Below are positions 4,801-58,503 of a DNA stretch of 64,000 nucleotides, piece by piece. Each line of letters begins with the position of its first letter. Positions within the stretch are counted from its first letter, which is position 1. Source of the stretch: Eubacteriales bacterium (GTDB taxonomy: Bacteria; Bacillota; Clostridia; Oscillospirales; JAAYXM01); assembly GCA_045580305.1 (NCBI GenBank), contig JAZNNQ010000027.1, positions 5,772 to 69,771 on the forward strand. The letters are read 5' to 3'. Made by a program: the position numbers and the translations under genes. The notes under the pieces are model-generated. The model was not told where the DNA came from. It made no database searches and saw nothing but the letters and a program-made list of their open reading frames with translations.

Positions 4801-4810
4801 TTAAAAACTT

Positions 4811-4860
4811 AAAGAGGTTTATCTCGAAAGCTGTGTTCGAGATAAACCTCTTTTTCTTTT
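4811..4860 (+). terminator. intrinsic terminator of the alpha operon
   Basis: 18-bp stem aaagaggtttatctcgaa/ttcgagataaacctcttt followed by a T-run. Confidence 0.85.
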
Positions 4861-4964
4861 TCAAAATAAAAAGGAATCGGCTGCGTTTAATACGCCCAGA
4901 TTCACGGGAAAGCCGCTTTCTGTTACCGATCCTAAGGTCAGTATAACAGAACGGGCGTGATGTG

Positions 4965-5429: not shown

Positions 5430-5621
5430 AAAAAATCACCTCTCTAAAGGTTATGCATTTTTAAGTAAAATATACAAGTAAGAATGACGAGAAATACAAG
5501 CTTTCGCAAATATATACAGGGTAAATGGGCACAAAACCCGTAAAAAACACATTCTTTAGTGCCTAAATTACGATTGCACCCTAGATGCTTTGTGCAGTTT
5601 ATGTATAAATATACTATTTTA

Positions 5622-5713
5622 TGCATAAATGAATGGAGATATTGATGAATTATGCAAAAAATTCCGAAAAATTCAAAAAAACTCTTGCATAAAAATTCAA
5701 CCTCTGCTATAAT
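5622..5713 (+). promoter_or_regulatory. argG promoter with three ARG-box-like sites
   Basis: -35 TTGCAT (5685-5690), 17-nt spacer, -10 TATAAT (5708-5713). TGCATAAAAATTCA (5686-5699) overlaps the -35 and has one mismatch to the TGAATwwwwATTCA core. Related TGCATAAATGAAT (5622-5634) and inverted TGAATTATGCA (5646-5656) lie upstream. Confidence 0.55.
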
Positions 5714-5752
5714 CATTATACTGAAAAAATTATCTTTAAGGAGAGATATATT

Positions 5753-7039: not shown

Positions 7040-8419
7040 ATGAAACTTTGGTCAGGACGCTTTCAAAAAGATATAGATGGATTGGTAAACGACTTTAACT
7101 CATCAATCCAATTTGATGCAAGAATGTACCGTGAGGACATCGAGGGCAGCATGGCGCACGCTATGATGCTCGGCAAGCAGGGGATCATTATGCAGGAGGA
7201 AGCAGATAAGATTGTGACTACTCTTGGCGAGATTCTTGCTGATATTGAGGCAGGTAAGGTAGAATTTTCTCTTGATAACGAGGATATTCATATGAATATC
7301 GAGCGTATACTCACCGAGCGTATCGGTGACACCGGAAAACGCCTTCATACTGCCCGTAGCCGTAACGATCAGGTAGCTCTCGACTTGCGAATGAATTTAA
7401 AGAAGGAAGTTGTCCGCATTAAGGGCCTTGTTTTAAAGCTTATGGCGGCTCTTGCCAATAAGGCTGAGGCTAATTTAGATGCCATTCTCCCGGGCTATAC
7501 CCATCTTCAGCGTGCACAACCTTCCACCGCAGGCCATCATTTTATGGCATACGGTGAGATGTTAAAGCGCGATGTTACACGCCTCGAGGACTGTTTAAAG
7601 AGAATGGACACAATGCCACTTGGCAGTTGCGCGCTCGCCGGCACAACCTATCCCATTGACAGATATTTCGTTGCTGAAAAATTAGGCTTTGCAAATATCA
7701 CTAACAACTCACTTGACGGCGTTTCCGACCGTGACTTTGTAATTGAGTTTGCATCCTGTCTTTCAATGATTATGATGCATCTTTCCCGTTTTTCCGAGGA
7801 AATAATCCTCTGGTGCTCATGGGAGTTCTCATATATTGAATTAGACGATGCTTATTCAACCGGTTCCTCCATTATGCCACAGAAGAAGAACCCGGATGTA
7901 GCAGAACTTGTAAGAGGTAAAACCGGCCGTGTTTATGGCTCTCTTATGGGCCTTCTCACTATGATGAAGGGCCTGCCCCTTGCATACAACAAGGATATGC
8001 AGGAGGATAAAGAGGCGATCTTTGACGCGGTTGACACCGTGGCTCAGTGCCTTGAGGTCTTCACTCCGATGTTCGAGACTATGACCATTAAAAAAGACAA
8101 TATGAAGAATGCAGCAAAGGGTGGCTTTATTAACGCTACCGACGCGGCAGACTATCTTGTTAAAAAGGGCCTTCCCTTCCGTGATGCCTATATGATCGTA
8201 GGTAAGCTTGTTACCTACTGTATTACCGAGAAAAAGACCCTTGATACACTTACTATGGACGATTATCATACATTATCCCCGGTTTTCGAGGAGGATGTTT
8301 ACGAGGCGCTTGATCTTGCAACCTGTGTTAACGGACGCAAGGTGCCCGGCGGCCCCGCCGAGGAAGAGGTCGCTCGTCAGATTGCTGAGCTTAAGAAATT
8401 TGTCGAGGAGAGGAAGTAA
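7040..8419 (+). CDS. argH: argininosuccinate lyase
   Basis: Start refined to MKLWSGRF (ATG 7040 after AAGGAG). Fumarate-lyase signature GSSIMPQKKNPD. Confidence 0.97.
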   Translation: MKLWSGRFQKDIDGLVNDFNSSIQFDARMYREDIEGSMAHAMMLGKQGIIMQEEADKIVTTLGEILADIEAGKVEFSLDNEDIHMNIERILTERIGDTGKRLHTARSRNDQVALDLRMNLKKEVVRIKGLVLKLMAALANKAEANLDAILPGYTHLQRAQPSTAGHHFMAYGEMLKRDVTRLEDCLKRMDTMPLGSCALAGTTYPIDRYFVAEKLGFANITNNSLDGVSDRDFVIEFASCLSMIMMHLSRFSEEIILWCSWEFSYIELDDAYSTGSSIMPQKKNPDVAELVRGKTGRVYGSLMGLLTMMKGLPLAYNKDMQEDKEAIFDAVDTVAQCLEVFTPMFETMTIKKDNMKNAAKGGFINATDAADYLVKKGLPFRDAYMIVGKLVTYCITEKKTLDTLTMDDYHTLSPVFEEDVYEALDLATCVNGRKVPGGPAEEEVARQIAELKKFVEERK

Positions 8420-8422
8420 ACT

Positions 8423-9457
8423 ATGATAAATGTAGGAATTGTAGGCGCAACCGGCTACGGCGGCGTTGAGCTTGTGCGACTTCTTCTCGCCCGCGACGAT
8501 GTAAATTTATGCTCTCTTAGCTCTGTTTCCTTTGAGGGTAAGAAAATTTCCGAAATTTACCCAATGCTTTACGGTATTTGCGACGATACCTTGGATACTC
8601 AGGACAAGGTAGTCGCAAAGTGCGATGTTATTTTCGCGGCACTTCCTCATGGCCTTTCCCAGAGCCTTGCAAAAGAGTGCATCGACAAAGGTAAGATTTT
8701 CATCGACCTTGGCGCGGATTTCCGCTTAGAGGATGAGGAAACTTATAAAAAGTGGTACGGTGGCAATTTTGAGGACAAAGAGCTTCAGGACAGCGCGGTT
8801 TATGGCCTTTGCGAATTAAATCGCGACAAATTACGCGGCGCGCGCCTTGTTGCAAACCCGGGTTGTTACCCCACCTCTATTGCGTTGGGTCTTTACCCTG
8901 CACTAAAGGGCGGTTTTTGTTCCACAAAGGGAATTATTATTGACTCCAAGTCCGGAGCGACGGGTGCCGGTCGCGGTCTTACCCAGACTACTCATTTCAC
9001 CGAATTAAACGAAGGTTTTGCTGCATACAAGGTAGGCAGTCACCGCCACACACCGGAAATTGAGCAGACCTTATCCAAAATGGCGGGCGAGGATGTGAAG
9101 GTTACCTTTGTTCCCCATCTTCTCCCAATCAATCGCGGAATTGAATCCACAATTTACGCGGAAATGAATCAGGAATACACTTTACTCCAGATCCACGACG
9201 CTTATGTGGATTTCTACAAAAATGAGAAATTCGTTACCGTTATGCCTTTAGGCAGTGCGGCAAATGTAAAAAATGTGCGAATGACAAATCAGTGTCAGAT
9301 TTCCCTGCACGAGGACAAGCACACCGGCCGTATTATTATCTCATCGGTAATTGATAATATGGTGAAAGGTGCGGCAGGTCAGGCTATTCAAAATATGAAT
9401 TTAGCACTCGGCTTACCGGAGGACAGAGGTCTTCCCATCTTAGCACCTGCATTTTAG
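8423..9457 (+). CDS. argC: N-acetyl-gamma-glutamyl-phosphate reductase
   Basis: 344 aa, GATGYGG NAD motif, active-site PGCYPT. Confidence 0.95.
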   Translation: MINVGIVGATGYGGVELVRLLLARDDVNLCSLSSVSFEGKKISEIYPMLYGICDDTLDTQDKVVAKCDVIFAALPHGLSQSLAKECIDKGKIFIDLGADFRLEDEETYKKWYGGNFEDKELQDSAVYGLCELNRDKLRGARLVANPGCYPTSIALGLYPALKGGFCSTKGIIIDSKSGATGAGRGLTQTTHFTELNEGFAAYKVGSHRHTPEIEQTLSKMAGEDVKVTFVPHLLPINRGIESTIYAEMNQEYTLLQIHDAYVDFYKNEKFVTVMPLGSAANVKNVRMTNQCQISLHEDKHTGRIIISSVIDNMVKGAAGQAIQNMNLALGLPEDRGLPILAPAF

Positions 9458-9467
9458 GAGAATGATT

Positions 9468-10682
9468 ATGAAAGAGATTTTAGGCGGTGTTTGTGCACCA
9501 CTCGGTTTTACAGCAGCGGGTATCCACTCGGGAATCCGCAAAAATAAAGACAGATTAGACCTTGCCCTTATCTCCTGCGAGCGTGAATGCAACGCGGCGG
9601 CAACCTTTACCACAAATCGTGTTAAGGCGGCGCCAGTGCAGCTTGATATGAAGAATATCAAAAGCGGCAAGATGCAGGCGGTAATCGTAAACAGCGGTAA
9701 CGCCAACGCCTGTGCACCCAACGGTATGGAGAATGCTGAAAAAATGTGCAAGATAGCGGCGGAGGCCCTCAATATCGCGCCCGAGCGCGTTTTCGTCTGC
9801 TCTACCGGCGTTATCGGCGTAGAGCTTGACACCACTCCGGTTGAAAAGGGTATGCCGAGCCTCGTGTCAGCTCTTTCCAAAGAAGGCGCTGAAAATGCGG
9901 CGCAGGCGATACTTACGACCGATCTTGTTAAAAAGGAGATCGCTTTAGAGGCAGAGATTGGCGGCAAGACCGTTAAAATCGGTGCGATCGCAAAGGGCTC
10001 GGGTATGATTCATCCCAATATGGGTACTATGCTCTGCTTTATCACAACGGATGCGGCTATAAGTTCTGAGCTTCTTCACGATGCACTCCTTGCAACGGTT
10101 AAAAGAACATTTAACCGCGTGAGCGTCGACGGTGATACCTCAACTAACGACACCGCGGTAGTAATGGCATCCGGCCTTGCGGGAAATGCTGAAATTACCG
10201 ATAAAAACGAGGATTATAACACCTTCTGCGCACTTCTCTATAAGGTTTGTGAGCATCTTGCCCGCGAGATGGCTCGTGACGGTGAGGGCGCGACACATCT
10301 TATCACCTGTGTGGTAAGTGGTGCAAAAGATGAAAAGAGCGCTGAAAAAATGGCGAAATCCGTTATTGGCTCGTCTCTTACAAAGGCGGCAATGTTCGGC
10401 GCAGATGCCAACTGGGGCCGCGTAATTTGTGCTATGGGCTACTCGGGCGAGGATTTCGATCCGGAAAAGGTTAAAATTTCTTTTAAGTCATCAGTCGGCG
10501 AGATTTTAGTTTGTGAAAACGGACGCGGTCTTGTTTTTGATGAAGATTTAGCTAAAAAGATCCTCACACAAGAGGAAGTTATCATTTGCGCCGAGCTTTG
10601 CGAGGGTCAGGCGTCAGCCACCGTTTGGGGTTGTGACCTTACCTACGATTATGTCAAAATTAACGGCGATTACAGAAGTTAG
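9468..10682 (+). CDS. argJ: bifunctional ornithine acetyltransferase / N-acetylglutamate synthase
   Basis: ATG 9468 has the better AGGAG spacing (7 nt). Autoprocessing site ...MLCFITTDA..., 404 aa. Confidence 0.93.
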   Translation: MKEILGGVCAPLGFTAAGIHSGIRKNKDRLDLALISCERECNAAATFTTNRVKAAPVQLDMKNIKSGKMQAVIVNSGNANACAPNGMENAEKMCKIAAEALNIAPERVFVCSTGVIGVELDTTPVEKGMPSLVSALSKEGAENAAQAILTTDLVKKEIALEAEIGGKTVKIGAIAKGSGMIHPNMGTMLCFITTDAAISSELLHDALLATVKRTFNRVSVDGDTSTNDTAVVMASGLAGNAEITDKNEDYNTFCALLYKVCEHLAREMARDGEGATHLITCVVSGAKDEKSAEKMAKSVIGSSLTKAAMFGADANWGRVICAMGYSGEDFDPEKVKISFKSSVGEILVCENGRGLVFDEDLAKKILTQEEVIICAELCEGQASATVWGCDLTYDYVKINGDYRS

Positions 10683-10694
10683 GAGGCTATTCCT

Positions 10695-11564
10695 ATGAAC
10701 AGTCATATCGAGCGCGCTAAAATACTTGTAGAGGCGCTTCCCTATATCCAGAAATACTATAACAAGACCGTTGTTATAAAATACGGCGGCAACGCTATGA
10801 TAAACGAGGAGTTAAAAGAGGCGGTAATCAACGATATTGTGCTTCTTTCCCTTGTCGGCGTTAAGGTTGTTGTCGTACACGGCGGTGGCCCCGAGATTAA
10901 CGCTATGTTCGAGCGCGTTGGTAAGGAGAGCAAGTTTGTAAACGGTCTCCGCTATACCGATGATGACTCTATGGACTTAGTCCAGATGGTACTCGCCGGC
11001 AAATTAAATAAGGAAATCGTTTCCATCATCAATAAGGCGGGCGGTCGCGCAATCGGCCTCTGCGGTATTGATGGCGGACTTTTCAAGGCTGAAAAGTTAA
11101 CTGAGGACGGCTTTGACTATGGTCGTGTAGGTGAGATCACCCAGGTTGACACCTCTGTTGTAAACGATGCCCTTAATTGCGGCTTTATCCCGGTTATCTC
11201 CACCGTTGCACAGGGCGAGGACGGAAGCTATAACATCAACGCTGACACTGCGGCTGCAAAGCTTGCGGCGGCGCTTGGTGCTGAAAAGGTTATGCTCCTT
11301 ACCGATATTGCAGGTCTTATGATGGATCCCAAGGATCCCACGACCCTTATCCGCGATATCAATGTTTCCGAGATTCCCCGTCTCCAGCGCGACGGCGTTA
11401 TCTCCGGCGGTATGATTCCCAAGATCGACTGCTGTGTTGAGGCGGTTCGTCAGGGCGTTGCCCAGGCGAATATTTTAGACGGAAGAGTTCCCCACTCCAT
11501 CCTTATGGAGATGCTGTCCGATGAGGGTATCGGCACTATGATCTACGGCGAAAGGTGTGTGTAA
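10695..11564 (+). CDS. argB: acetylglutamate kinase
   Basis: 289 aa, VIKYGGNAM...VVVHGGGP...NINAD.AA. Confidence 0.95.
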   Translation: MNSHIERAKILVEALPYIQKYYNKTVVIKYGGNAMINEELKEAVINDIVLLSLVGVKVVVVHGGGPEINAMFERVGKESKFVNGLRYTDDDSMDLVQMVLAGKLNKEIVSIINKAGGRAIGLCGIDGGLFKAEKLTEDGFDYGRVGEITQVDTSVVNDALNCGFIPVISTVAQGEDGSYNINADTAAAKLAAALGAEKVMLLTDIAGLMMDPKDPTTLIRDINVSEIPRLQRDGVISGGMIPKIDCCVEAVRQGVAQANILDGRVPHSILMEMLSDEGIGTMIYGERCV

Positions 11565-11570
11565 TTTTCG

Positions 11571-12758
11571 ATGAACACACAGGAAATAAAATGTAAAGAT
11601 TCCGCATTTATAATGCAGACCTACGGCCGCTTCCCCGTTGCGATAACACGCGGCGAGGGTGCTAAGGTCTACAGCCCGGAGGGCAAGGAATATATCGACT
11701 TTACAAGCGGTATCGGCGTTTGTAGCGTAGGCTATGGCAATAAAGAATGGGCAGACGCTATATACGCGCAGGCTTTAAAGCTCGGTCACATCTCAAACCT
11801 CTATTACACCGAACCGTCGGTAATTCTTGCGGAGCGTCTGTGTACTATTTCCGGTATGAGCAATGTGTTTTTCTCAAACTCCGGTGCTGAGAGTAACGAA
11901 GGCGCAATCAAACTTGCAAGAAAGTACAGCCGTGATAAATACGGTGATGGCAGAAGTAAGATTATCACTCTTTACCAGTCCTTCCACGGCAGAACGGTTA
12001 CCACTCTTGCCGCAACCGGCCAGGATGTGTTCCACACAAACTTTTTCCCTTTTACCGAGGGATTTGTCCATGTTCCGGCAAACGATTTTGAGGCACTTCT
12101 AAACGAGGTTGACGACACCACTTGCGCTATTATGATGGAGCTTGTTCAGGGCGAGGGCGGCGTATTACCGCTTGATCGTGAATTTGTAAATAAAGTTCGC
12201 ACACTTTGCGACGAAAAAGACATTCTCCTTATAATCGACGAGGTGCAGACCGGTATCGGTCGTACGGGCAAACTTTTCGCCTTTATGGAATACGGCATCC
12301 TGCCCGATGTTGCAACTACCGCAAAGGGTATTGCAGGCGGTCTTCCGATGGGTGCTGTATTTGCAAGTGAGAAGACAAAAAATGTACTTACTGCAGGTAC
12401 ACACGCTACCACATTTGGCGCAAACCCGATATGCGCTGCTGCGGCAAACAAAGTTCTCGATATTTTAGAGAGCGGAGTGCTTGCTGAAGTATCAAAAAAA
12501 GGTGCATACATCCGCGAGAAAATCGAGGCTATGAACCTTGATATTGTAAAGGGCACCCGTGGTTTGGGTATGATGATCGGCGTCATTGTCCCGGAGGGTG
12601 AGCATAAGGCGCTTGCCGCAAAATTAATTGATGCAGGACTTCTGTGTATCACAGCAGGTAAGGATGCAATTCGATTCTTACCACCCCTTACAATAACATA
12701 TGAAGAAATAGATCTTGGTCTTAAAATATTTGAAACCGTTATGAAGGAGGCGAAGTAG
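11571..12758 (+). CDS. argD: acetylornithine aminotransferase
   Basis: 395 aa class-III PLP aminotransferase (SGAESNEGA..., IDEVQTG.GRTG, TFGANP). Confidence 0.93.
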   Translation: MNTQEIKCKDSAFIMQTYGRFPVAITRGEGAKVYSPEGKEYIDFTSGIGVCSVGYGNKEWADAIYAQALKLGHISNLYYTEPSVILAERLCTISGMSNVFFSNSGAESNEGAIKLARKYSRDKYGDGRSKIITLYQSFHGRTVTTLAATGQDVFHTNFFPFTEGFVHVPANDFEALLNEVDDTTCAIMMELVQGEGGVLPLDREFVNKVRTLCDEKDILLIIDEVQTGIGRTGKLFAFMEYGILPDVATTAKGIAGGLPMGAVFASEKTKNVLTAGTHATTFGANPICAAAANKVLDILESGVLAEVSKKGAYIREKIEAMNLDIVKGTRGLGMMIGVIVPEGEHKALAAKLIDAGLLCITAGKDAIRFLPPLTITYEEIDLGLKIFETVMKEAK

Positions 12759-12761
12759 CCA

Positions 12762-13673
12762 ATGAAACACCTTTTAAAAATTACCGATTTATCCCGCGAG
12801 GACATCACCCACATTTTAGATGTGGCAGATCAGCTTAAATATAACCAGAAGCACGGAATTCCCCACAGACTTCTCGAGGGCAAGACCCTTGCTATGATTT
12901 TCCAGAAATCGTCCACCCGTACCCGTGTTTCCTTCGATGTTGGTATGTTCCAGCTTGGCGGCCACGCGATGTTCCTCTCTACTGCTGATATTCAGATGGG
13001 CAGAGGTGAGTCCATTCGTGACACCGCCCGCGTTCTTTCCCGCTATTGCGACGGTATTATGATCCGTACCTACGGTCAGGACGAGGTTGAGGAACTTGCT
13101 GAATATGCAACTATTCCGGTTATAAACGGCCTTACCGACTACTCTCATCCCTGCCAGGTTTTAGCTGACTTAATGACAATTCGTGAGCATCTTAAGACCT
13201 TAGAGGGACTCCATATGTGCTATATCGGCGACGGTAATAATATGGCAAACTCTCTTGTTGCCGGCGGTCTTATCACCGGTATGAAGGTAACCTGCGCTAC
13301 TCCCAAGGGCTATGAGCCGGACCCCCAGATACTTGATTTTGCAAAGCAGTACAATGATAAGTTTACCTGGTATGAGGATGTTATGGAAGCGGCAAAGGGC
13401 GCTGACATTCTTGTTACCGATGTTTGGGCAAGTATGGGTCAGGAGTCAGAGCGTGAAGAGCGCGCAAGAATTTTCAAAGGCTATCAGATAAATGATGCTG
13501 TAATGCAGGTGGCAAATAAGGGCGCAATCGTCCTCCACTGCTTACCCGCACATAAGGGCGAAGAGATCACCGAAGAGGTATTTGAAAAGTATGCAGACAG
13601 CATCTTCGATGAGGCTGAGAACAGACTCCATGCACAGAAAGCGGTTATGGCGATCTGCATGGGCGATAAGTAA
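12762..13673 (+). CDS. argF: ornithine carbamoyltransferase
   Basis: 303 aa, STRTR carbamoyl-phosphate motif, HPCQ.LAD, HCLP. Confidence 0.95.
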   Translation: MKHLLKITDLSREDITHILDVADQLKYNQKHGIPHRLLEGKTLAMIFQKSSTRTRVSFDVGMFQLGGHAMFLSTADIQMGRGESIRDTARVLSRYCDGIMIRTYGQDEVEELAEYATIPVINGLTDYSHPCQVLADLMTIREHLKTLEGLHMCYIGDGNNMANSLVAGGLITGMKVTCATPKGYEPDPQILDFAKQYNDKFTWYEDVMEAAKGADILVTDVWASMGQESEREERARIFKGYQINDAVMQVANKGAIVLHCLPAHKGEEITEEVFEKYADSIFDEAENRLHAQKAVMAICMGDK

Positions 13674-13680
13674 AATAAAT

Positions 13681-13716
13681 AAAATAAGAGCATCGGCTTA
13701 CCGATGCTCTTATTTT
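13681..13716. terminator. bidirectional intrinsic terminator (argF / XRE gene)
   Basis: Perfect 16-bp stem aaaataagagcatcgg/ccgatgctcttatttt with loop ctta. A-run on one side and T-run on the other. Confidence 0.85.
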
Positions 13717-13952
13717 ATTTCCTGTTCTAAATTGTTGAAAACTTCTGTAGAAAAGAATTCCCCCAAAGGTATTTCCAACCCATCGCAAAACTTTTTAATT
13801 GTGCGAATGGACACATCGCGGCGATTTTTATCCATCATACTGTATGCTGTTGAGGGCGTGACACCGGATATATTGGCAAGTTCATTAATGGTAATATTGC
13901 GCTCCTTGCACAACTCATAAAATCTATTTACAATTACATCCTTAAGATCCAT
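13710..13952 (-). CDS. XRE-family helix-turn-helix transcriptional regulator
   Basis: 80 aa, ...ITINELANISGVTPSTAYSMM...TIKKFCDGLEIPLGEFF is a classic HTH_3/XRE layout. GAGGTG RBS. Confidence 0.85.
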   Translation of the reverse strand: MDLKDVIVNRFYELCKERNITINELANISGVTPSTAYSMMDKNRRDVSIRTIKKFCDGLEIPLGEFFSTEVFNNLEQEIK

Positions 13953-13995
13953 TTTAAAACACCTCGTAAGGACATTTTAAAATAATTTACGATTA

Positions 13996-14007
13996 TGCGT
14001 ATACGCA
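13996..14007. promoter_or_regulatory. perfect 12-bp palindrome TGCGTATACGCA in the divergent XRE/Zn-ribbon intergenic region (candidate operator)
   Basis: Self-complementary, flanked by TTACG...CGTAA. A TATAAT (14035-14040) lies downstream on the + strand. Confidence 0.4.
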
Positions 14008-14078
14008 CTTGCGTAAACTGCCGAAAGATGTTAGTATAATTGTGAGGACTAAAAAATTCAAACGAAAGGTTGATAAAA

Positions 14079-14258
14079 ATGAAAAACGAAAAAGTAGTGT
14101 TGCCTAAAGGTAAGCTTTGCGCGATGTATTATTGCGGTGATTGTCGTCATTTAGATCGTAGTGACAGATCAAAAGATGGCGAGGCCGCTTACTGCAGACT
14201 TCACAGAACATACAGATGCTTAGATAAAGACTATGGTTGTTCAGACTGGTCAAGATAA
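14079..14258 (+). CDS. 59-aa Cys-rich, Zn-ribbon-like small protein (unknown family)
   Basis: ATG 14079 lies 9 nt after GAAAGG. Cys14/19/22/39/47/54 plus His24/42, giving C-x4-C-x2-C...C-x2-H-x4-C-x6-C. Confidence 0.55.
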   Translation: MKNEKVVLPKGKLCAMYYCGDCRHLDRSDRSKDGEAAYCRLHRTYRCLDKDYGCSDWSR

Positions 14259-14655
14259 GAAAATACATATAAAAGAAGAAATATTTGGTAAAATCTGCGC
14301 GTCAATAAGTAAAAACCGATATGAAACCGGCGGTATTATAGGAATCAACTCACGAGGGATAGTGTGTGCCTTTCAGTTGGATCATATAACAACGGCATAT
14401 CCATACGAATATCGGACAAATACACGGTTTTTAAATGATGTGATTGAAAGGTGGGCAAAAGTAGGTATAACCTTTGCCGGCATCGTCCATTCACATATGC
14501 ATAATAACTGTATATCTCGCGAGGATATAGAATATGCCCGAGAGATATTAAAGGCAAATGAATTTATGAAGGATATCATAATGGGCATTATAGACTTGTC
14601 CGGCGAGGCTGAATATATTGAGTGGTACTTAATCAATGCCGAAACGGTTATGTAG
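14233..14655 (+). CDS. JAB/MPN(JAMM)-like metalloprotease-domain protein
   Basis: 140 aa. E31 lies in YETGGIIG, then 55 aa later H86-S-H88-x6-S95-x2-D98 (IVHSHMHNNCISRED). Canonical JAMM is HxHx7Sx2D, so the spacer is one residue short. Overlaps the upstream ORF by 26 nt. Confidence 0.6.
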   Translation: MVVQTGQDKKIHIKEEIFGKICASISKNRYETGGIIGINSRGIVCAFQLDHITTAYPYEYRTNTRFLNDVIERWAKVGITFAGIVHSHMHNNCISREDIEYAREILKANEFMKDIIMGIIDLSGEAEYIEWYLINAETVM

Positions 14656-14754
14656 TAATAAAAATTAGGGCTAATCTGATAGCCATCCGCACAGAGAGTG
14701 GTGCATATGAAGAGATAATGGGCCAACGAAAGGAAGATAAGGATATGAAAAACA
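14650..14754 (+). repeat. 105-bp direct repeat, copy 1 (leader + RBS + first codons of the downstream gene)
   Basis: The first 62 nt are identical to 15290-15351. The remaining 43 nt have 4 mismatches. Confidence 0.95.
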
Positions 14755-15281
14755 CAGTTGGTGGTTATTGCGCAGGCATAGGAATTGTTTTATTTTTAGC
14801 GATTTGCGGTGTAGGTGAAAGTTGGACGGACACGGCTACAAGGGCTTTAGCGGCAATTGTAATTATTGTATCTACAATAATAGGAATCGCGATGGATATA
14901 AGTGAAGCAAAAACAAATGCGGTAGACAAAAAAGACTCTGCTGCCATAGCTGTTGCAGTTATGTTTATAGAACAGGGATACAAAATCGCGCAACGATACC
15001 GGATTTATGACCCATGCCTTTTAACCGTGCATAAACGAGAGGTTGGGTTCGAAGTTGTATTATACACATTGAGTCCATACTCATATATAGCTAATTTACG
15101 AACAAATGATTTATTTATTCCTCGCAACGATGATGGCGATGGTTGCTTAGTGAAGGTGTGCAATATGGATATTGAGTGCAGTTGGAGTAAGTTTGAGAAG
15201 GAAGTGTGGAATGAAGTCAAGTGTGAACATCCATCTTGGAATGTTCAGTATAACAATGGGCATGGCATAATAAAATTTTAG
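14745..15281 (+). CDS. membrane protein (2-3 N-terminal TM helices plus ~100-aa soluble C-terminal domain), unknown family
   Basis: Start refined to the ATG at 14745 behind GGAAGATAAGG. Hydrophobic runs GIGIVLFLAICGV, ALAAIVIIVSTIIGIA, AAIAVAVMFI. Confidence 0.6.
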   Translation: MKNTVGGYCAGIGIVLFLAICGVGESWTDTATRALAAIVIIVSTIIGIAMDISEAKTNAVDKKDSAAIAVAVMFIEQGYKIAQRYRIYDPCLLTVHKREVGFEVVLYTLSPYSYIANLRTNDLFIPRNDDGDGCLVKVCNMDIECSWSKFEKEVWNEVKCEHPSWNVQYNNGHGIIKF

Positions 15282-15289
15282 TCGATAAT

Positions 15290-15394
15290 ATGTAGTAATA
15301 AAAATTAGGGCTAATCTGATAGCCATCCGCACAGAGAGTGGTGCATATGAATAGATAACGTGCCAACGAAAGGAAGATAAGGGTATGAAAAACA
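15290..15394 (+). repeat. 105-bp direct repeat, copy 2
   Basis: See copy 1. Ends with the same ATGAAAAACA start context. Confidence 0.95.
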
Positions 15395-15498
15395 ATAAAG
15401 AAAGTCGCAGCAATGATCGCGCAATAAATGAGGCATGTGATGTAATAGACGAAGCAATAGAGATTGTAGAAAAACACGCAAATAGTGCTCACAAATAG
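15385..15498 (+). CDS. 37-codon ORF behind repeat copy 2 (MKNNKESRSNDRAINEACDVIDEAIEIVEKHANSAHK)
   Basis: Shares the RBS, ATG and MKN start with the gene at 14745. Not in the ORF track (<60 aa). Coding status uncertain. Confidence 0.3.
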   Translation: MKNNKESRSNDRAINEACDVIDEAIEIVEKHANSAHK

Positions 15499-15500
15499 GT

Positions 15501-15626
15501 ATGATTTCAAGAAGAATAGGTGAGTATTCAAGCTTCTGCATTTACATTGGTGTGGATGATATAGCACAAGCGAAGCAAATAGGAAGTCAAAAACGGAAAG
15601 AACTTCTGTTGGAAAATGCACCGTGA
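15501..15626 (+). pseudogene. 41-codon ORF, possibly the frameshifted N-terminal remnant of the following gene
   Basis: MISRRIGEYSSFCIYIGVDDIAQAKQIGSQKRKELLLENAP. Overlaps the ATG at 15616 by 11 nt in another frame. Confidence 0.2.
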
Positions 15627-16200
15627 TGGATATTTGAATTATGTGAAAAAACCTTGCCTTATATACGAGTCTGTGACAGATGTCGGAAACTTTAAAGAGC
15701 ATGACAAATGGGTGTGGGATGTCATTGTAGGATTTTATGAACCAGAGTGGAATCCATTTTATGACAAGAATGGATTTACCTACATTGTTCAAAGTAATCA
15801 ATATATATCTGCATCGGCTACGAAACAAGCAGAGAAAAAATATTATCCTAATTTAACATGCGAACCAGTAGATACGGTGGTAAAACAAATAGAAAAGGCA
15901 TACAAGATGGTTAAGAAATATAAAAGTTTGTTTGGACCAATAGCTATTGTTATGGGGAAGACTGATAAAAAAGAAACCTACACACTTAGTTTCTCTTCTT
16001 TATTTTTAAGTGAAAAAGATGTTAATTATATAGTCAAAAATGAAGGTTCTCGTGGATTTCGTATAGAGAAAAAGGGAGATTCCGAGTGGCTTTTTCATAC
16101 TGAACTTAGAGGAAATGAAAATCTTCAATCCGGCACATGGGAAAAAGTCGAAAAATTGCATCCAGATTGGGATATTATTGATTATGTTGTATTTTGTTAA
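15616..16200 (+). CDS. hypothetical 194-aa soluble protein, no recognisable motif
   Basis: Long ORF in an AT-rich context, followed by a strong terminator. The C-terminal W-EK-E..HP-W..Y string weakly resembles the C-terminus of the 14745 gene. Confidence 0.55.
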   Translation: MHRDGYLNYVKKPCLIYESVTDVGNFKEHDKWVWDVIVGFYEPEWNPFYDKNGFTYIVQSNQYISASATKQAEKKYYPNLTCEPVDTVVKQIEKAYKMVKKYKSLFGPIAIVMGKTDKKETYTLSFSSLFLSEKDVNYIVKNEGSRGFRIEKKGDSEWLFHTELRGNENLQSGTWEKVEKLHPDWDIIDYVVFC

Positions 16201-16218
16201 TAATATTATGATAGTTAA

Positions 16219-16258
16219 AGGAGCGACCAAAAATAATGGTCGCTCCTAAATTTTATTT
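16219..16258 (+). terminator. intrinsic terminator closing the islet
   Basis: aggagcgacc/ggtcgctcct 10-bp stem with a 9-nt loop, then a T-rich tail. Confidence 0.8.
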
Positions 16259-16390
16259 AAAACAAGAAAAACAAGCTATTATCAACAGAGACGATACCTA
16301 GCAAAAGTGAAACTTTTATATGTTTTGTAGTAGGATTAAAAGATAGATCTACAAATTGATAACTTTTCAAACAAGCATAGCTTGTAATCC

Positions 16391-19336
16391 TTATTCAAAT
16401 GTATACTTGTAAGTGTTTGTGCCGTGTACGCCGTAGAGGTTTCCGTAGTTGTCCTCAACATGGTACAGACCGGAATCGCGGATGAGAAGCTGTACATCCT
16501 TGGTCTTAATATCGATACTGTAAATGTTTGCGGTCTGACGGAAGTCGCTGGGAATAATACCGACATTATAAAGGTCAGATACATAAATCTTGGTACCGTC
16601 GTTTGAAAGGGTCATCTTATCGCCGTACCAGGTAGCACCGAAGTTATTGATGGAAACATTCTTCTCATAAATTACCTTGTTTGCCTTCGGATCGAAGATG
16701 AAGAGGCGGGTGCTGGTGGTTTCCTCGCAGTTTGCAAGACCCCAGACATTTCCGTCGGATGCGGTTGTCATAGCGGTAATTGCGGTAGCGCCCGGAATGA
16801 TTACACCATACTTCTCAAACTCCTTGGTAGCGAAGTTGTAGGAGAAGAGTTCGCACTCGGTAGCTCTTGCATCGGTGTTACTGCCCGGACGGATGGATGT
16901 ACCGAAGAATACCTTACGGTTTGCGTAAGCAATACCGGTAATGGTAAGGTCCGGTACGACAGAGTGAGTTGACCAGAAGGTATCGTCGTTCTTTTCCATA
17001 TCATAGAATGCGATTGCGCTGCCGTAGAAGCCCTGCTTAGGAATGGTAGCCACTACCATGGTCTTCTCCTCGGGGATACCGAGAAGGTTATAGGGACGGT
17101 CCTGTTTGGGATAGGTATCGTCATCTGCCTTAGAGCCCATATTCATTGCCAGATACGGGTTGCTTGCCGCTGTATCCCAAGGCTTTGTAGTGTCGTATTT
17201 AGAAATGTAGGAGTTGGGGTAACGGCCGAAGAAAACATAATCGCCGTAAACGCCCATACCCTCGACCTGACGGAGACCGTAGAGGTCCTCAAACTCGTCT
17301 GTGGTGGGGTTATAGCGACCGGTAGAAGCACCGATGTAGCCACCAATGTAGATGTTACCGTCATTTGCCTTGATTGTACAGTTACCGGTGGTGGGGTTAC
17401 CTTCGATAACAAGCTGAATGAAGCTTAACTTATTGGTTTCTAAGTTATAGCGCAGGAATGAGCCTAAATGGCTGTTAAGAGTAACAAATGACCAGCCGGG
17501 GAATTCCGGATCATCAAGCTCTAAGAAAATGAAGTTAAGAGGAGCGGTGCCCCATGCATCCGGCACACCCTCTGCAATGTAGGATATTTCGTCGGTGTCC
17601 ACATTGTATTTATAGAACTGAACATCGTCGAAGAAATATACAAAGTTTCCGACAGGAGAGAGAGCAGAAACTGCACGACCGTTCATATGAGTCTCGGTTA
17701 ATTTCTCGCCTGTTTCAAGATGTGTAAAGGTGATTTCCTCACCGGTTTTCGCATCGAGTACGAATAAGTTACTGCCAACCTCGCTGCGGCAGAAGAGCTT
17801 GCCGTTAACCAAGCGCATATCATAAACAACACCGATAGAGTCAACATATTTCTGGGGGAGAATGTTTACCTTCTCACCGGTCTTGGGGTTGAAACGATAT
17901 ACATATGCCTTGCCTTCACTGCTACGAGCAGCAACGAAAACAACATCGCTGTCCGGATCAGCAATGGAATAATACTGACCGTAGTCCTTGTCGCCTAATT
18001 TATATTCAGTGAACTTGTCGGTCTTGGGGTCTAAGCTGTAAATGGAATTTGAGGTAGCTTGCGCGCCCCAGATGATACCGTTTTCATCCTCGGTCATAAC
18101 AAGGGGAAGGGTTGAACCACCGGCAGGCGGGCCGATAAGCTCAAGTGTTTCGGTATCGACATTCCAACGATAAATAAGCGCCTCGCCATATGCGGCAACA
18201 TAGCAATCGCCGGAGGAGTGCACGAAGACGCCCCAGGCACCGTTTGATTTGCGTGTGTTACCCTTTTCATCAACAAGTTCAAGGGGAATACAAAATACCT
18301 GCTCACCGGTTTCCGGACGAATACCGATAAAGGAAGCGGGAGTACCGTCGTTTACCATATAAACGATGTTCTTGCCGTCCTTGTCCTTGCCACCGTCGCA
18401 GTACTTATTGTATACAACCTCGTTGGTGACGCCAAGATCGCGAGTGGTATAACCGCCACCGTTACGGCTTAAGTCATTCTTGACGAATTTACCTAAAAGT
18501 TCGGTTTTATCGTCTTTGTAAACGGTCTTTTCGGTACAGTTGCGGAGTACGATATTACCCTCGACCTTAACATTCTCAAGGTGAATTAAAGACCAAGCGT
18601 CAACCGCCTCAGAGAGGATAAGGTCGCCCTTGACGGTCATATTCTTTAAAGTTGTATCCTTTGCGGTAACGAGAAGGTTACCATCAACATCCTTGTCATA
18701 TGTACCGGACGCGGTGTCGGTAATCATACGGTCGAGAAGAGTAACAAATTCAGCGCGAGTAACATTTCCCTTTGGGGAAAGCTTTCCGTTTGCGCCTTTT
18801 GCATAGCCTAAATTGATCATAGCCGCGGTAGCGTCCTTTGCCCAGGAGCTAACCAGACCCTTGTCGGTAAAGCCATCGATAGAAGCGGTCTTGTCATATT
18901 GGATACAGAAAAGACGAGAGAGCACGGTGAAGGTTTCTTCACGGGTGATGCTGTCCTGAGGACGCATCTTCATATTGGCACCAAAGATAACCTGCATACG
19001 GCGAGCCGCAGCAATGTCTTCAGCATACCAAGCATCAGCAGGAACATCGGTGTATCCGGTTAAATCCTCAACTAATGTTGCGCCGAAGATGCGGCGAACA
19101 ATGGCGGAAAGCTGTGCTCTTGTGAGCCAAGCATCCGGATTAAGACAGTCACCGTTACCGTTGATCCAGCCGCTGTCTGCAGCACGGGTAAGGGAAGCCT
19201 CAGCCCAGTGGTCATCAATGTCGGCCCAGCTTTTCTCGGGTGCGGGGGAGATAACCATATCGTTTGCAAATGCAACAACGGAGCAGGAGCAAAGAATGGA
19301 TACGGTTAAGAGAAACGCTAAAAATCTGTTTTTCAT
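16391..19336 (-). CDS. SLH-domain surface protein with a large repeat (beta-propeller-like) C-terminal region
   Basis: 981 aa. Signal peptide MKNRFLAFLLTVSILCSCSVVAFA, then three N-terminal SLH repeats (W..A......G...G........TRA....L.R). About 12-14 short repeats of type hYhh....G.hY.h(D/N)..T.E follow. Confidence 0.8.
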   Translation of the reverse strand: MKNRFLAFLLTVSILCSCSVVAFANDMVISPAPEKSWADIDDHWAEASLTRAADSGWINGNGDCLNPDAWLTRAQLSAIVRRIFGATLVEDLTGYTDVPADAWYAEDIAAARRMQVIFGANMKMRPQDSITREETFTVLSRLFCIQYDKTASIDGFTDKGLVSSWAKDATAAMINLGYAKGANGKLSPKGNVTRAEFVTLLDRMITDTASGTYDKDVDGNLLVTAKDTTLKNMTVKGDLILSEAVDAWSLIHLENVKVEGNIVLRNCTEKTVYKDDKTELLGKFVKNDLSRNGGGYTTRDLGVTNEVVYNKYCDGGKDKDGKNIVYMVNDGTPASFIGIRPETGEQVFCIPLELVDEKGNTRKSNGAWGVFVHSSGDCYVAAYGEALIYRWNVDTETLELIGPPAGGSTLPLVMTEDENGIIWGAQATSNSIYSLDPKTDKFTEYKLGDKDYGQYYSIADPDSDVVFVAARSSEGKAYVYRFNPKTGEKVNILPQKYVDSIGVVYDMRLVNGKLFCRSEVGSNLFVLDAKTGEEITFTHLETGEKLTETHMNGRAVSALSPVGNFVYFFDDVQFYKYNVDTDEISYIAEGVPDAWGTAPLNFIFLELDDPEFPGWSFVTLNSHLGSFLRYNLETNKLSFIQLVIEGNPTTGNCTIKANDGNIYIGGYIGASTGRYNPTTDEFEDLYGLRQVEGMGVYGDYVFFGRYPNSYISKYDTTKPWDTAASNPYLAMNMGSKADDDTYPKQDRPYNLLGIPEEKTMVVATIPKQGFYGSAIAFYDMEKNDDTFWSTHSVVPDLTITGIAYANRKVFFGTSIRPGSNTDARATECELFSYNFATKEFEKYGVIIPGATAITAMTTASDGNVWGLANCEETTSTRLFIFDPKANKVIYEKNVSINNFGATWYGDKMTLSNDGTKIYVSDLYNVGIIPSDFRQTANIYSIDIKTKDVQLLIRDSGLYHVEDNYGNLYGVHGTNTYKYTFE

Positions 19337-19357
19337 ATTGTTACCCTTCCTTATAAT

Positions 19358-20509
19358 TTATTTTTGAAGCAGACGGTCTAAAATTACAGCGACCTCTGCG
19401 CGGGTTGCATTGTTTTTCGGGTTGATCTTACCGTTTGTGCCGGTAATAATCTCAGCCTGAGTGAGAAGGTTAACCGCATCGACGGCATAAGCGGAAACCG
19501 CACTGATATCGGAAAATGCAGGGTAGGAGGTAGAGGTGAGATTGATGCCCGCCTTCTCGGTAGCGCGCTTAATGATTACCATAATGTCCTGACGGGTAAT
19601 GGGAGCGGTGGGGTTAAACCTATCCTTGCTCACACCGGTAGCGATACCAAGCTCTTTTGCGATACCAACAGCATTGTAGTAATATGCGTTTGTGGGTACA
19701 TCCGCAAAGTTTTCACTAAAGTCAACCTTGAAACCAAACGCGCGAACGATAAGAGTAATAAAGTCAGCGCGGGTGATGTTCTTGCCGGGCGCATAGGTGG
19801 TAGCGCTTGTACCGTTGATTATACCCTGATAGAAAAGGTTGTATATTGCATCCTTTGCCCAGGGGTAACCGCCAAGATCGGTAAAGGTCTGTGCCTGGGA
19901 AGCGGGGATCCACTGTGCATACAGGGTCATAGAGCCGTAAATTTTAGATGTAAAATCAAAGGGCTGTTTTCCGAATGGATCGGTTGTCCACCCGGTGAAA
20001 ACATAGCCGTCACAAGTGGGGGGAGTGGGCGCATTTGCGGTCTCGCCCTCAACAACGGTGATCTTTTCCACATAGCTTCCACCCTGAGTGTCAAAGTCGA
20101 TTATATAGGTGGTAGCGCCGGCGGGGATGTCACTATAATCGCTACCGGCCGCGCTGCCTGAATTGCCGCCGGTAATACCGCCGAGAAGCGGGTTGATTGT
20201 AAAGTTAGCGGTGATGCTTACATTCTGTGCCGGCATAACAAAGGTTGTTACATAGTTTATTTCGCTGTCCAAAACAATGGGGTCATCGGTTGTCCAGTTG
20301 TAGAACACATAGCCGGTCTGAGGACTTGCCATAATTCTAATGGTAGTGCCGGGGGTGGCCCAACTCTGTGACGCCTCAACAACGCCGCCACCCAGAGTCA
20401 AAAGGGTGATGGAATATTCCGTAGGCTCGGCACTATCGGTCGCAAGAGCTACTGTAGATGTAAATACCAATAAAAGGGAAAGTAATAACGAGATGGATTT
20501 TTTAAGCAT
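19358..20509 (-). CDS. surface protein with InlB-B / Listeria-Bacteroides repeats and three C-terminal SLH domains
   Basis: Start refined to MLKKSISLLL (ATG 20509 behind GGAGAG). Contains FDTQGG....GY.FTGW......F.F.....MTLYAQW. SLH repeats at the C-terminus. Sits 21 nt upstream of the 981-aa gene. Confidence 0.8.
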   Translation of the reverse strand: MLKKSISLLLSLLLVFTSTVALATDSAEPTEYSITLLTLGGGVVEASQSWATPGTTIRIMASPQTGYVFYNWTTDDPIVLDSEINYVTTFVMPAQNVSITANFTINPLLGGITGGNSGSAAGSDYSDIPAGATTYIIDFDTQGGSYVEKITVVEGETANAPTPPTCDGYVFTGWTTDPFGKQPFDFTSKIYGSMTLYAQWIPASQAQTFTDLGGYPWAKDAIYNLFYQGIINGTSATTYAPGKNITRADFITLIVRAFGFKVDFSENFADVPTNAYYYNAVGIAKELGIATGVSKDRFNPTAPITRQDIMVIIKRATEKAGINLTSTSYPAFSDISAVSAYAVDAVNLLTQAEIITGTNGKINPKNNATRAEVAVILDRLLQK

Positions 20510-39022: not shown

Positions 39023-39075
39023 TTTGTCCCTGATTTAACACAAGCATAAAATTGCAATAAGAGGTGAGATGAAAA

Positions 39076-58501: not shown

Positions 58502-58503
58502 TT

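Follow-up and report, generated by a model that had tools for sequence, protein, structure and literature searches.

An AT-rich islet of uncultured gut Clostridia with a predicted JAB protease, a small Cys-rich protein and exchangeable variable proteins

To our knowledge, the JAB proteases of bacterial immunity have so far been understood solely as parts of E1/E2 conjugation machines, namely CBASS Cap3 and Bil. The archaeal enzyme JAMM1 works with SAMP modifiers and the E1 enzyme UbaA. In RosmerTA, an XRE-family HTH regulator is fused to a Zn-metallopeptidase, and the lysogeny modules of Gram-positive hosts (Sie2009, Ltp, ImmA) join an XRE repressor and a metalloprotease to a variable, N-terminally anchored protein of 150-200 aa. 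The toxin-antitoxin systems hicAB, higBA and mqsRA have a toxin-first gene order. Cap3 trims or deconjugates the C-terminus of a partner protein (PMC10097602, PMC11153139). In the T6SS immunity arrays of Vibrio cholerae, each cassette is preceded by a duplicate of the upstream gene's end, and displaced cassettes decay (PMC5361080). Here we describe an islet in which a JAB, predicted to be related, appears locked to a tiny, probably zinc-binding protein without conjugation enzymes, and is joined to fast-swapping membrane-tethered proteins of an unnamed domain family.

Place, composition and borders of the islet

The window, that is, the whole 64-kb stretch of DNA analysed, carries the islet between argF and a cluster of SLH surface-protein genes (Table 1). 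Its 2679 nt have a GC content of 0.361, the minimum among all 2.68-kb windows in the 64 kb, where the other windows average 0.466 (sd 0.025; islet z = -4.3); GC is 0.30-0.40 over 13600-16400 vs 0.45-0.52 in the flanks. The AT-rich turn after argF, which a sequence-only reading of this DNA had judged by eye, is thus borne out. The same reading took the stretch for an accessory islet and asked whether argF abuts the SLH gene in relatives. Indeed, seven metagenome contigs of close relatives show argF nearly abutting the SLH gene, with exact junctions; therefore, the site can be empty, and the SLH cluster is intact in these relatives. Some 270 nt, including a 48-aa TM gene, lie between the two genes there, and the islet replaces them. 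The comparison moves the borders from the 13700 and 16390 first proposed to 13715 and 16393, and the left junction, at 13714/13715, falls within the argF terminator hairpin. The strong terminator assigned to the end of the islet is present, as are all seven short genes listed in that reading.

None of the seven islet proteins matches an integrase or transposase family, neither a tRNA nor a further copy of the argF end occurs in the 64-kb window, and the signs of a site-specific island (an integrase, att-like target repeats at both ends) are absent in the window; in this respect the earlier account holds. Locus L001 is flanked by a repeat of the argF end; a 9-nt microhomology joint (GCRGTTATG) to a fragment of a membrane-protein gene accounts for it. 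From its sequence, this joint is best read as the product of homology-facilitated illegitimate recombination and not of att recombination.

Table 1. Features of the islet, in window coordinates
Feature	Position	Strand	Description
Whole inserted islet	13715..16393	none	2679 nt, GC 0.361; borders set by comparison with empty-site relatives
argF terminator hairpin	13677..13720	none	20-bp stem, bidirectional, ends the XRE gene too
XRE/Cro-C1-type HTH regulator, 80 aa	13710..13952	-	Pfam HTH_26, E = 1.8e-9
Divergent control region (probable operator and promoter)	13953..14078	none	palindromes TTTACG..GCGTATACGC..CGTAAA at 13986-14017; TATAAT at 14035-14040
Cys-rich protein, 59 aa	14079..14258	+	most conserved component
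Predicted minimal JAB/JAMM metalloprotease, 140 aa	14233..14655	+	start codon 26 nt inside the Cys-rich ORF
Leader copy 1	14648..14755	+	last two JAB codons, intergenic region, RBS and first codons (ATGAAAAAC) of the membrane-protein gene
Resident cassette, 178-aa protein	14745..15281	+	two N-terminal TM helices, then variable ~120-aa domain
Leader copy 2	15288..15395	+	96% identity with copy 1; in front of the displaced cassette 2
Cassette 2, pseudogenised soluble two-domain paralog of the variable domain	15385..16200	+	ORFs of 37 aa (15385-15498), 41 aa (15501-15626) and 194 aa (15616-16200)
Intrinsic terminator closing the operon	16219..16247	+	11-bp stem, 7 G-C pairs, T-run

A conserved Cys-rich/JAB pair and its regulator

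The 59-aa protein probably binds Zn; C19, C22 and C39 are invariant and C47 and C54 nearly so. Weak, sub-threshold similarity to DUF7140 is seen in 10 of its 16 members. Its structure model consists of three beta strands at low confidence; the structure models, with pLDDT of 49 and 58, are too low for any fold assignment. The protein ends in a conserved C-terminal tail, GCSDW-x-R/K, whose conservation is in part forced by the overlapping start of the JAB gene. The Cys-rich and JAB genes are adjacent in all 18 loci found, and the 26-nt overlap of their ORFs recurs in 17 of them.

The 140-aa protein is predicted to belong to the JAB/JAMM (MPN+) superfamily with its active site intact. The catalytic residues E31, H86, H88, S95 and D98 are invariant in three close and 40 wider relatives; according to the sequence and the alignment, the motif reads HxH-x6-S-x2-D, whereas the canonical form has one residue more (x7). 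Against Pfam Prok-JAB, the protein reaches 16.8 bits (E = 0.0066; cut-off 25). With the profile of its family, however, 1085 proteins are retrieved, Prok-JAB-positive JAB-ThiF fusions among them, and the best PDB match is the archaeal desampylase JAMM1 (E = 1.5e-4), with the catalytic core covered. The invariant residues and the JAMM1 match support the JAB-like call of the sequence-only reading.

The JAB is 31-36% identical to the JAB domains of JAB-ThiF (E1) fusions. The PADLOC model of the CBASS JAB is matched by the window protein at only E = 0.03, below threshold, and by its close relatives at 1e-5 to 1e-7; JAB relatives also give weak PADLOC matches to the CBASS JAB (Cap3), Cap2 (E1-E2) and 6A-MBL cap2_3 models. 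The partners that CBASS and Bil require had been called absent, and they are: tblastn of the 64-kb window with six JAB-E1 fusion proteins matches the JAB gene alone, no islet protein matches E1 or E2 models in Pfam or PADLOC, and none matches a CD-NTase or a ubiquitin-like (beta-grasp) protein in Pfam, NCBIfam or PADLOC. RadC and ImmA/IrrE were likewise rightly set aside, since the window JAB matches no RadC profile in Pfam at E <= 1 and no islet protein matches an M78/COG2856 peptidase in Pfam, PADLOC or NCBIfam.

The XRE gene is divergent from the operon. The region between them, a probable operator and promoter, is 94% identical to that of L001 vs ~85% for the coding flanks. In PADLOC, the XRE protein gives generic HTH matches, and its weak RmrA matches cover the HTH only; it is also the sole islet protein with a PHROGs match, namely to phage repressors. 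Between loci, the XRE genes are not orthologous; thus, a specific protease-substrate pair of JAB and XRE is unlikely. The XRE, Cys-rich and JAB genes are all under purifying selection, with dN/dS of 0.026, 0.044 and 0.245 against L001.

Occurrence of the module and turnover of its cassettes

The module is rare and has been met only in uncultured gut Clostridia, where it occupies at least 10 unrelated chromosomal contexts in MAGs, with tRNA-Asn, GH20, HAD hydrolase and other genes as unrelated neighbours. It recurs as a discrete unit of 0.6-3.5 kb (core 0.6 kb, full operon 1.5-2.7 kb) and in 11 of 13 loci has a higher AT content than the DNA on either side. Co-occurrence of a trio of Zn-ribbon, JAB and TM protein across genomes had been suggested as a check. 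The trio is not obligate: the first two co-occur in 18 of 18 loci, but the variable or membrane protein accompanies them in 13 of the 18, 4-90 nt after the JAB gene and on the same strand (within ~20 nt in most; in L017 the two genes overlap by 4 nt). The pair stands without the variable protein in L008 and L009 and has other downstream neighbours in L010, L015 and L016, and variable proteins without the pair are found in L025 and L026. Since each is found without the other, the pair and the variable proteins may be separable units that merely travel together.

Downstream of the JAB, there are usually one to four variable-domain proteins, mostly anchored by one or two N-terminal helices; L006 and L025 have arrays of three to six paralogs. 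The L025 array adjoins a gene of the YcaO family, which is used in peptide natural-product pathways. The ~120-aa variable domain forms a real and new family: its HMM finds matches in 13 loci, tandem repeats of it occur within single proteins, and as many as six of its genes stand in one array. It is predicted, from the positive-inside rule, to face the cytoplasm. The homology of the 178-aa gene with L001 breaks at 14904/14905, just past the TM helices.

The sequence-only reading overlooked a 106-nt direct repeat of the leader (14649-14754 and 15289-15394), 96% identical within the window; the orthologous leader of L001 is only ~70% identical. It also counted the two tiny ORFs and the 194-aa protein as separate genes, and these are fragments of one decayed paralog of the variable domain. 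Three lesions disable this second cassette: a frame change at ~15486-15500, an in-frame TGA at 15624-15626 and a further frame change at ~15639-15645. At the DNA level it is 78% identical to loci from genomes of 33% GC. We propose that the tail of the operon changes by cassette replacement, in which a newcomer would bring a JAB 3' end and a leader, and the older cassette would be pushed downstream and decay there. In the window, the 178-aa gene would be the resident cassette and the 37-, 41- and 194-aa ORFs the displaced, broken one. We hold the anatomy, insertion and cassette dynamics described here to be very probably correct.

The profile-HMM check suggested earlier agrees that the islet matches no known system: apart from the HTH of the XRE, nothing significant emerges from PADLOC, and no PADLOC or PHROGs family matches the module or its variable domain. 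Searches of IMG/VR, INPHARED phages and plasmids brought up no relative of the JAB, the Zn-protein or the variable domain, and no integrase or phage gene lies beside the module in any locus examined. The resemblance to a prophage-immunity module that had been noted is thus not sustained, since nothing in PHROGs, IMG/VR, INPHARED or plasmids links the islet to prophages.

Proposed function and comparison with known systems

We read the islet as a horizontally acquired, dispensable operon of a type not described before. A conflict module, serving phage defence, abortive infection or a toxin-antitoxin-like function, is in our judgement its likeliest identity, at about even odds. An anti-phage role is suggested by the distribution, the variability and the relatives of the JAB. 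In the scheme that we propose, the XRE would keep the operon low, and the Zn-protein/JAB pair would be the constant sensing and processing unit, in which the fixed ORF overlap would couple the Zn-protein translationally to the JAB. The target of the JAB would be the conserved C-terminal tail of the Zn-protein or else the tethered proteins; the variable membrane-tethered proteins would give specificity or effector activity. This particular proteolytic mechanism is tentative and rather unlikely to hold in detail. It is possible, though distinctly doubtful, that the Zn-protein and a Cap3-like JAB form a minimal tag-and-protease switch without E1/E2, in which the JAB processes the tail of the Zn-protein or frees it from a partner and controls hypervariable tethered sensors or effectors. 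If so, the islet would represent a new anti-phage or abortive-infection family in gut Clostridia, whose specificity cassettes are swapped between species by homology-anchored illegitimate recombination.

The Cys-rich and JAB genes could instead make up an addiction module on their own, as a two-gene system of the toxin-antitoxin type, with the variable proteins as unrelated cargo in the same spot; for example, the small Zn-protein could be a toxin and the protease the antitoxin that neutralises it, in toxin-first order. The loci where the pair stands alone or precedes unrelated genes agree with this, as do the small overlapping ORFs, the AT-rich DNA, the patchy occurrence without mobility genes, and the persistence of the variable-domain array in L025 after apparent loss of the pair. 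Conservation is also much stronger in the small protein (78% identity to L004) than in the larger one (46%), as would suit a component that acts on a conserved target in the cell. We nevertheless consider such a module unlikely, as the pair has no similarity to known toxin or antitoxin families in Pfam, PADLOC or NCBIfam, autoregulated type II pairs do not usually come with a separate XRE regulator, and the tight placement of the variable gene behind the JAB in 13 of 18 loci suggests functional coupling. The variable, mostly membrane-tethered proteins could also be an immunity array against interbacterial toxins or bacteriocins, grown by sequential displacement, with the Cys-rich/JAB pair beside it in a regulatory or processing role. 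The multi-gene arrays of L006 and L025, the exchange of cassettes between distant genomes, the YcaO neighbour, and the duplicated 3' end and leader ahead of each cassette with the displaced one decaying, as in PMC5361080, all suit it; yet no toxin or secretion-system gene adjoins any locus examined, no Pfam immunity family is similar, and the strict Cys-JAB core is left unexplained, so that we find it quite improbable.

A remnant of a degraded prophage or integrative-element lysogeny module, with repressor, anti-repressor protease of ImmR/ImmA-like logic and superinfection exclusion, would account for gene types that resemble those of Gram-positive lysogeny modules and for the phage-repressor matches of the XRE. 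It is very improbable in view of the missing phage relatives and phage neighbours, the recurrence of the module as a discrete unit, an XRE that is alone and divergent instead of co-transcribed with the protease, and a JAB fold that differs from ImmA/IrrE. Almost no weight is given to a lineage-specific housekeeping or envelope function tied to the SLH surface proteins, such as regulated membrane-protein proteolysis. The islet does adjoin the SLH cluster, and the dS of the XRE and Cys-rich genes between the window and L001 (0.93 and 0.97) is comparable in magnitude to the 0.68-0.77 of the flanking arg/SLH genes, so co-divergence over some time is possible; but the empty site with its SLH cluster intact, the unrelated neighbours in other genomes and the deviant composition contradict it.

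Should the islet serve in defence or addiction, the known range of JAB proteins would gain a new architecture, and the rewiring of a deconjugating enzyme a compact, testable case; cassette turnover, by sequential displacement and microhomology joints, would be documented for uncultured gut Clostridia, a group with few described systems of this kind. If it is a plain toxin-antitoxin pair with cargo, the family is still new and of modest interest.

Compared with toxin-first type II systems (hicAB, higBA, mqsRA), the islet shares two small overlapping genes of ~60 and then ~140 aa and solitary, patchy, AT-rich insertions without mobility genes; it differs in having no sequence or predicted-fold similarity to them and in that its larger protein is an enzyme with an intact predicted active site, not a DNA-binding antitoxin. 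Like ImmR/ImmA and RosmerTA, it is a small mobile module of HTH regulator, Zn-metalloprotease and variable third part, but its protease has a predicted JAB fold, not M78/COG2856, is encoded separately and on the opposite strand to the XRE, and has an obligate Cys-rich partner, and its XREs are non-orthologous between loci. JAMM1 (Pyrococcus furiosus, PDB 5lda/5ld9; HvJAMM1) is likewise stand-alone, has ~130-140 aa and gives the best match among solved structures; the two are only weakly similar, over the first ~100 residues, and the islet lacks SAMP and UbaA. With CBASS Cap3 and the JAB-E1 fusions, the islet has in common a minimal JAB/JAMM domain in which E, HxH, S and D do not vary; unlike CBASS and 6A-MBL, it has no E1, E2, CD-NTase or ubiquitin-like gene, and, unlike in CBASS and Bil, the partner of its JAB is the Cys-rich protein, not a nucleotidyltransferase or a beta-grasp protein. 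The target of Cap3 is the C-terminal tail of a protein dedicated to it, which suggests an analogous relation between the islet JAB and its partner. Finally, the displacement arrays (V. cholerae T6SS and the orphan cassettes of polymorphic toxins; PMC5361080, PMC3240628) differ from the islet, which has no secretion system or toxin, a Zn-protein/JAB constant part and a new cassette domain; in common are the duplicated gene end and leader before each cassette, the newest cassette beside the constant part with the displaced one decaying, and a break just past the conserved N-terminal part, with one junction homology-anchored and joined by microhomology.

An accessory islet between argF and the SLH gene

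The GC content falls from 0.45-0.52 to 0.30-0.40 across about 13600 to 16400, and the islet at 13715-16393, between argF and the SLH gene, has a GC content of 0.361, the lowest of all 2.68-kb segments in the 64 kb (z = -4.3 against the rest). This bears out the AT-rich stretch of the sequence-only reading, whose ORF positions and strong terminator are confirmed as well. Its statement that integrase, transposase and tRNA genes are missing also holds: no tRNA gene lies in the window, and no islet protein matches an integrase or transposase family. An Rfam traJ-II match at 13623-13727 was rejected, as it is the argF terminator hairpin and scores 33 bits, below the gathering score of 40. Further AT-rich patches (1-kb GC 0.32-0.40) at 37500-39250, about 4750-6000 and 58500-59750 have no similarity to the islet; the patch at 37500-39250 contains genes for an MBOAT/AlgI-like membrane protein (5' part only), a GNAT-like acetyltransferase and a small lipoprotein (start only).

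Features of the islet in the window, and copies of the ~27-nt motif (CATCTAAACCATTCGGCTCTTCCAAAA) at loci from other genomes
Feature	Sequence	Coordinates	Strand
XRE gene	window	13710-13952	-
Cys-rich protein (Zn-protein), 59 aa	window	14079-14258	
JAB-like protein, 140 aa	window	14233-14655	
178-aa protein, two N-terminal hydrophobic helices	window	14745-15281	
ORFs of 37, 41 and 194 aa	window	15385-16200	
Strong terminator	window	16219-16247	
~27-nt motif	L004	1266-1290	
~27-nt motif	L011	2145-2169	
~27-nt motif, two copies, both downstream of module	L013	2221-2245, 2445-2469	
~27-nt motif	L014	1789-1813	
~27-nt motif, one copy each side of module	L015	3040-3064, 4806-4830	

The operon is mobile and dispensable. 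The window ArgF clusters at 90% identity with proteins of JGI, ENA and Logan assemblies, and in seven contigs with a clustered ArgF (L018-L024) argF is followed by 50 nt, a 48-aa membrane ORF and a 982-aa SLH gene. By blastn, window 8001-13714 corresponds to L018 2242-7952 (84%) on the left flank and window 16394-20089 to L018 8222-11919 (83%) on the right; the window thus has 2679 nt where the empty site has about 270 nt. The check for an empty site in close relatives, which the sequence-only reading had proposed, thus found seven contigs without the islet and favours an accessory element. The 48-aa ORF between argF and the SLH gene, present in L018-L024 and L001, is absent from the window (16248-16393 against L018 7966-8112); it was deleted on acquisition of the right-hand part of the islet. 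A metagenome scan returned no relatives of the SLH C-terminus, and exact copies of the window JAB and ArgF proteins are not on record.

Three loci from other assemblies, L001-L003, have a third arrangement: argF is followed by the XRE, Cys-rich and JAB genes and a 203-aa membrane protein gene, and after these the argF 3' end and its terminator recur, ahead of an additional HTH-TM gene, the 48-aa ORF and the SLH gene; in the window the argF end occurs only once. The window and L001 are homologous as far as 14904/14905, directly past the TM helices, and again for 36 nt (window 14928-14963, L001 4693-4728), and this segment is joined in L001 to the argF 3' end via the 9-nt microhomology GCRGTTATG. 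Site-specific integration, prompted for L001 by a 68-nt flanking repeat, was rejected in view of the microhomology joint, which, together with the homologous anchor in argF, is the signature of homology-facilitated illegitimate recombination (concept in PMC3240628), the mechanism that we prefer.

Compared with the empty site, L001-L003 contain another small insertion at this spot (L001 4787-5301), where a minus-strand gene at 4771-5166 encodes a 131-aa HTH_3/HTH_19 protein with a hydrophobic segment at its C-terminus; insertions thus seem to land repeatedly in the argF-SLH intergenic spot. At two other loci the whole XRE-Cys-JAB-variable module lies between direct repeats, at 224-251 and 1817-1844 in L014 (28 nt, 100%) and at 430-453 and 2477-2500 in L013 (24 nt, 96%). 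The bracketing repeat is in each case a terminator hairpin located after a tRNA gene, with no sequence relationship between the L013 and L014 hairpins; the repeats could have arisen by illegitimate recombination at hairpins, comparable to the L001 microhomology joint.

The Cys-JAB core and its control region

Close relatives of the window JAB are three in 5.8 billion proteins, and the Cys-rich protein has 13. GTDB genomes contributed seven more loci, all in 'Clostridia bacterium' MAGs and several of animal or human gut, and one additional locus came from a metagenome. The JAB gene lies directly 3' of the Cys-rich gene in 18 of 18 loci, the window included, and its conserved start codon is exactly 26 nt inside the Cys-rich ORF in 17 of them; this layout indicates that the pair is obligate and translationally coupled.

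Of all components the Cys-rich protein is the best conserved (63-92% identity within the family), with C19, C22 and C39 invariant and C47 and C54 nearly so, and it has a sub-threshold but consistent resemblance to Pfam DUF7140 (10 of 16 members); its profile had no match in the PDB. The JAB-like assignment of the sequence-only reading stands on the residues E31, G33, G34, H86, H88, S95 and D98, invariant in a 40-sequence alignment, and on the best solved-structure relative, the desampylase JAMM1, but the window protein scores under the Pfam cut-off. A profile of three family members retrieved 1085 proteins out of 1.84 billion representatives. This wider family includes JAB-ThiF (E1) fusions, which match Cap2 and 6A-MBL models and whose JAB part is 31-36% identical to the window JAB, and small members with weak matches to the PADLOC CBASS JAB (Cap3) models.

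The operon is under a conserved divergent control region beside the XRE gene. A divergent XRE gene precedes the Cys-JAB pair in the window, L001, L005, L011-L015 and L017, and the XREs of different loci belong to different HTH subfamilies. In the window the control region comprises 126 nt with palindromes and a TATAAT box, and it shares 94% identity with the L001 region, against about 85% for neighbouring coding DNA. Between these two loci, dN/dS is 0.026 for XRE, 0.044 for the Cys-rich gene, 0.245 for JAB and 0.49 for the membrane-protein N-terminus, at dS values of the same order as those of argB, argF and the SLH gene; selection thus preserves these genes.

Cassette turnover and the variable domain

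The fixed Zn-protein/JAB core is followed by a hypervariable tail that exchanges cassettes. A 106-nt segment at 14649-14754, which the sequence-only reading had not reported, is repeated at 15289-15394 with 96% identity; this leader comprises the last two JAB codons, the RBS and the first codons of the following gene. The orthologous L001 leader is only about 70% identical, so the second window copy is recent. The leader was rejected as a structured RNA or riboswitch, since shuffled sequences fold equally well (z = 0.42), no relevant Rfam match was obtained and a candidate -10 hexamer differs between the two copies. Each copy contains on the minus strand a 5-bp hairpin (GGCTA/TAGCC; 14669-14684 and 15309-15324) followed by a T-run and scored as terminator-like; at neither position is there a minus-strand gene for it to terminate.

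The two tiny ORFs and the 194-aa ORF had been read as separate genes, but they align in three frames to 254-aa two-domain paralogs and are best read as one broken gene, a displaced, decaying cassette, with frame changes near 15486-15500 and near 15640 and an in-frame TGA at 15624-15626 (LENAP*WIFE against LDGKPDWIFE). At the DNA level its intact second domain is 78% identical to L006 and L007 and 74% to L025, in genomes of about 33% GC in which the JAB protein is only about 48% identical; cassettes are thus exchanged among distant hosts, uncoupled from the core.

The 178-aa protein weakly resembles the 194-aa ORF in its C-terminal part, and both belong to a family with members downstream of JAB in 13 of 18 loci. 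The variable domain, about 120 aa, has an N-terminal helix (..IE.AYK..) and ends in W..vw.e....HP[EDS]W, usually with one or two TM helices and a K/E/Q-rich linker in front. K and R occur after the TM segment and none before it, which predicts a cytoplasmic domain. It also occurs in tandem without an anchor (254 aa, 409 aa) and in arrays of three to six genes (L006, L025); only eight such proteins were found in a large protein database, and no match was obtained in Pfam, PADLOC, PHROGs or PDB. The proposed co-occurrence of zinc ribbon, JAB and TM protein holds for the first two in 18 of 18 loci but not for the third: the pair stands alone in L008 and L009 and precedes other genes in L010, L015 and L016, and the variable domain occurs without it in L025 and L026. 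The association is frequent, not obligate.

In L025 (1-6444), six consecutive variable-domain genes (409, 161, 177, 198, 180 and 177 aa) lie directly after a YcaO-family gene and a gene whose 301-aa product has a CxxxCxxC-like motif; the 409-aa protein resembles the L006 proteins of 254 and 174 aa joined together, as if by deletion of the intervening Cys-JAB. In one MAG (L016 10624-11394), a vWA-like gene replaces the variable-domain gene after JAB (sub-threshold VWA_CoxE, E = 7e-4; DRSGSMSG MIDAS-like motif), a hint that the core pairs with different partners. The conserved ~27-nt motif, with a variable terminator hairpin after it, lies just 3' of the variable gene; the window lacks it, and about 270 kb of loci examined contain no further copy. 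Possible explanations are a 3'-UTR element or a scar left by successive cassette insertions.

The structure modelling and Foldseek search that had been suggested gave no fold: the AF2 models of the 194-aa protein (pLDDT 49) and the Zn-protein (pLDDT 58) are too poor for annotation, nothing in the PDB matched either at E <= 0.001 (TM-scores 0.4 or less), and structure matches to histidine-kinase CA domains were disregarded.

Putative function and relation to known systems

Mobile operons that are under selection, join a fixed core to a hypervariable tail and sit under a conserved divergent control region are typical of conflict systems. Given this combination and the JAB relatives in CBASS-type defence, we rank first a conflict module acting in defence, abortive infection or addiction, a reading that we hold with about even confidence. 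In CBASS-type defence, Cap3 acts on the C-terminus of a partner (PMC10097602, PMC11153139). In the islet, JAB might process the tail of the Zn-protein or the tether of the variable proteins, a hypothesis that we consider rather doubtful.

Other readings need to be weighed against the conflict module. The Cys-JAB pair might be a stand-alone, toxin-antitoxin-like unit with the variable genes as cargo; the loci with the pair alone may be set beside the downstream association in most loci, and we regard this reading as unlikely. An immunity-gene array is less probable still; the overall cassette pattern agrees with sequential displacement as reported for T6SS immunity arrays (PMC5361080), and the Zn-protein and JAB form a constant core. 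For a remnant of prophage immunity, which we hold to be very unlikely, there is the XRE gene on one side; on the other, JAB has no match in INPHARED, PLSDB or IMG/VR and the Zn-protein none in IMG/VR, and a phage or plasmid origin was rejected on these searches. A housekeeping function is hardly credible at all: the operon is dispensable, and the site is empty in close relatives.

The earlier proposal of an anti-phage, abortive-infection or prophage-immunity module thus keeps its accessory nature, and JAB relatives add a link to CBASS-type defence, but the islet does not fit a prophage module. We rate the islet as a small JAB-containing operon of putative conflict type, in which two of the three core protein families are unnamed. 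The proposal of an undescribed system agrees with the searches: the profile libraries hold no description of the Cys-JAB pair or the variable domain, and literature searches on DUF7140, Prok-JAB and JAB with zinc ribbon and XRE found none of the module. The module is real, coherent and testable, yet rare and confined to uncultured Clostridia, with a putative function.

The sequence-only reading had set the islet apart from CBASS/Bil, RadC and ImmA/IrrE, and this separation stands. Type II CBASS and Bil-type systems have the JAB domain in common with the islet, which lacks E1, E2, cyclase and Ubl, and no E1 is encoded anywhere in the 64-kb window. ImmA/RosmerTA systems are defined by an M78 peptidase, which the islet lacks, and it likewise lacks the defining features of RadC, prophage modules and integrase-borne islands. 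The module shares a domain with the CBASS/Bil group and its logic with several other known systems.
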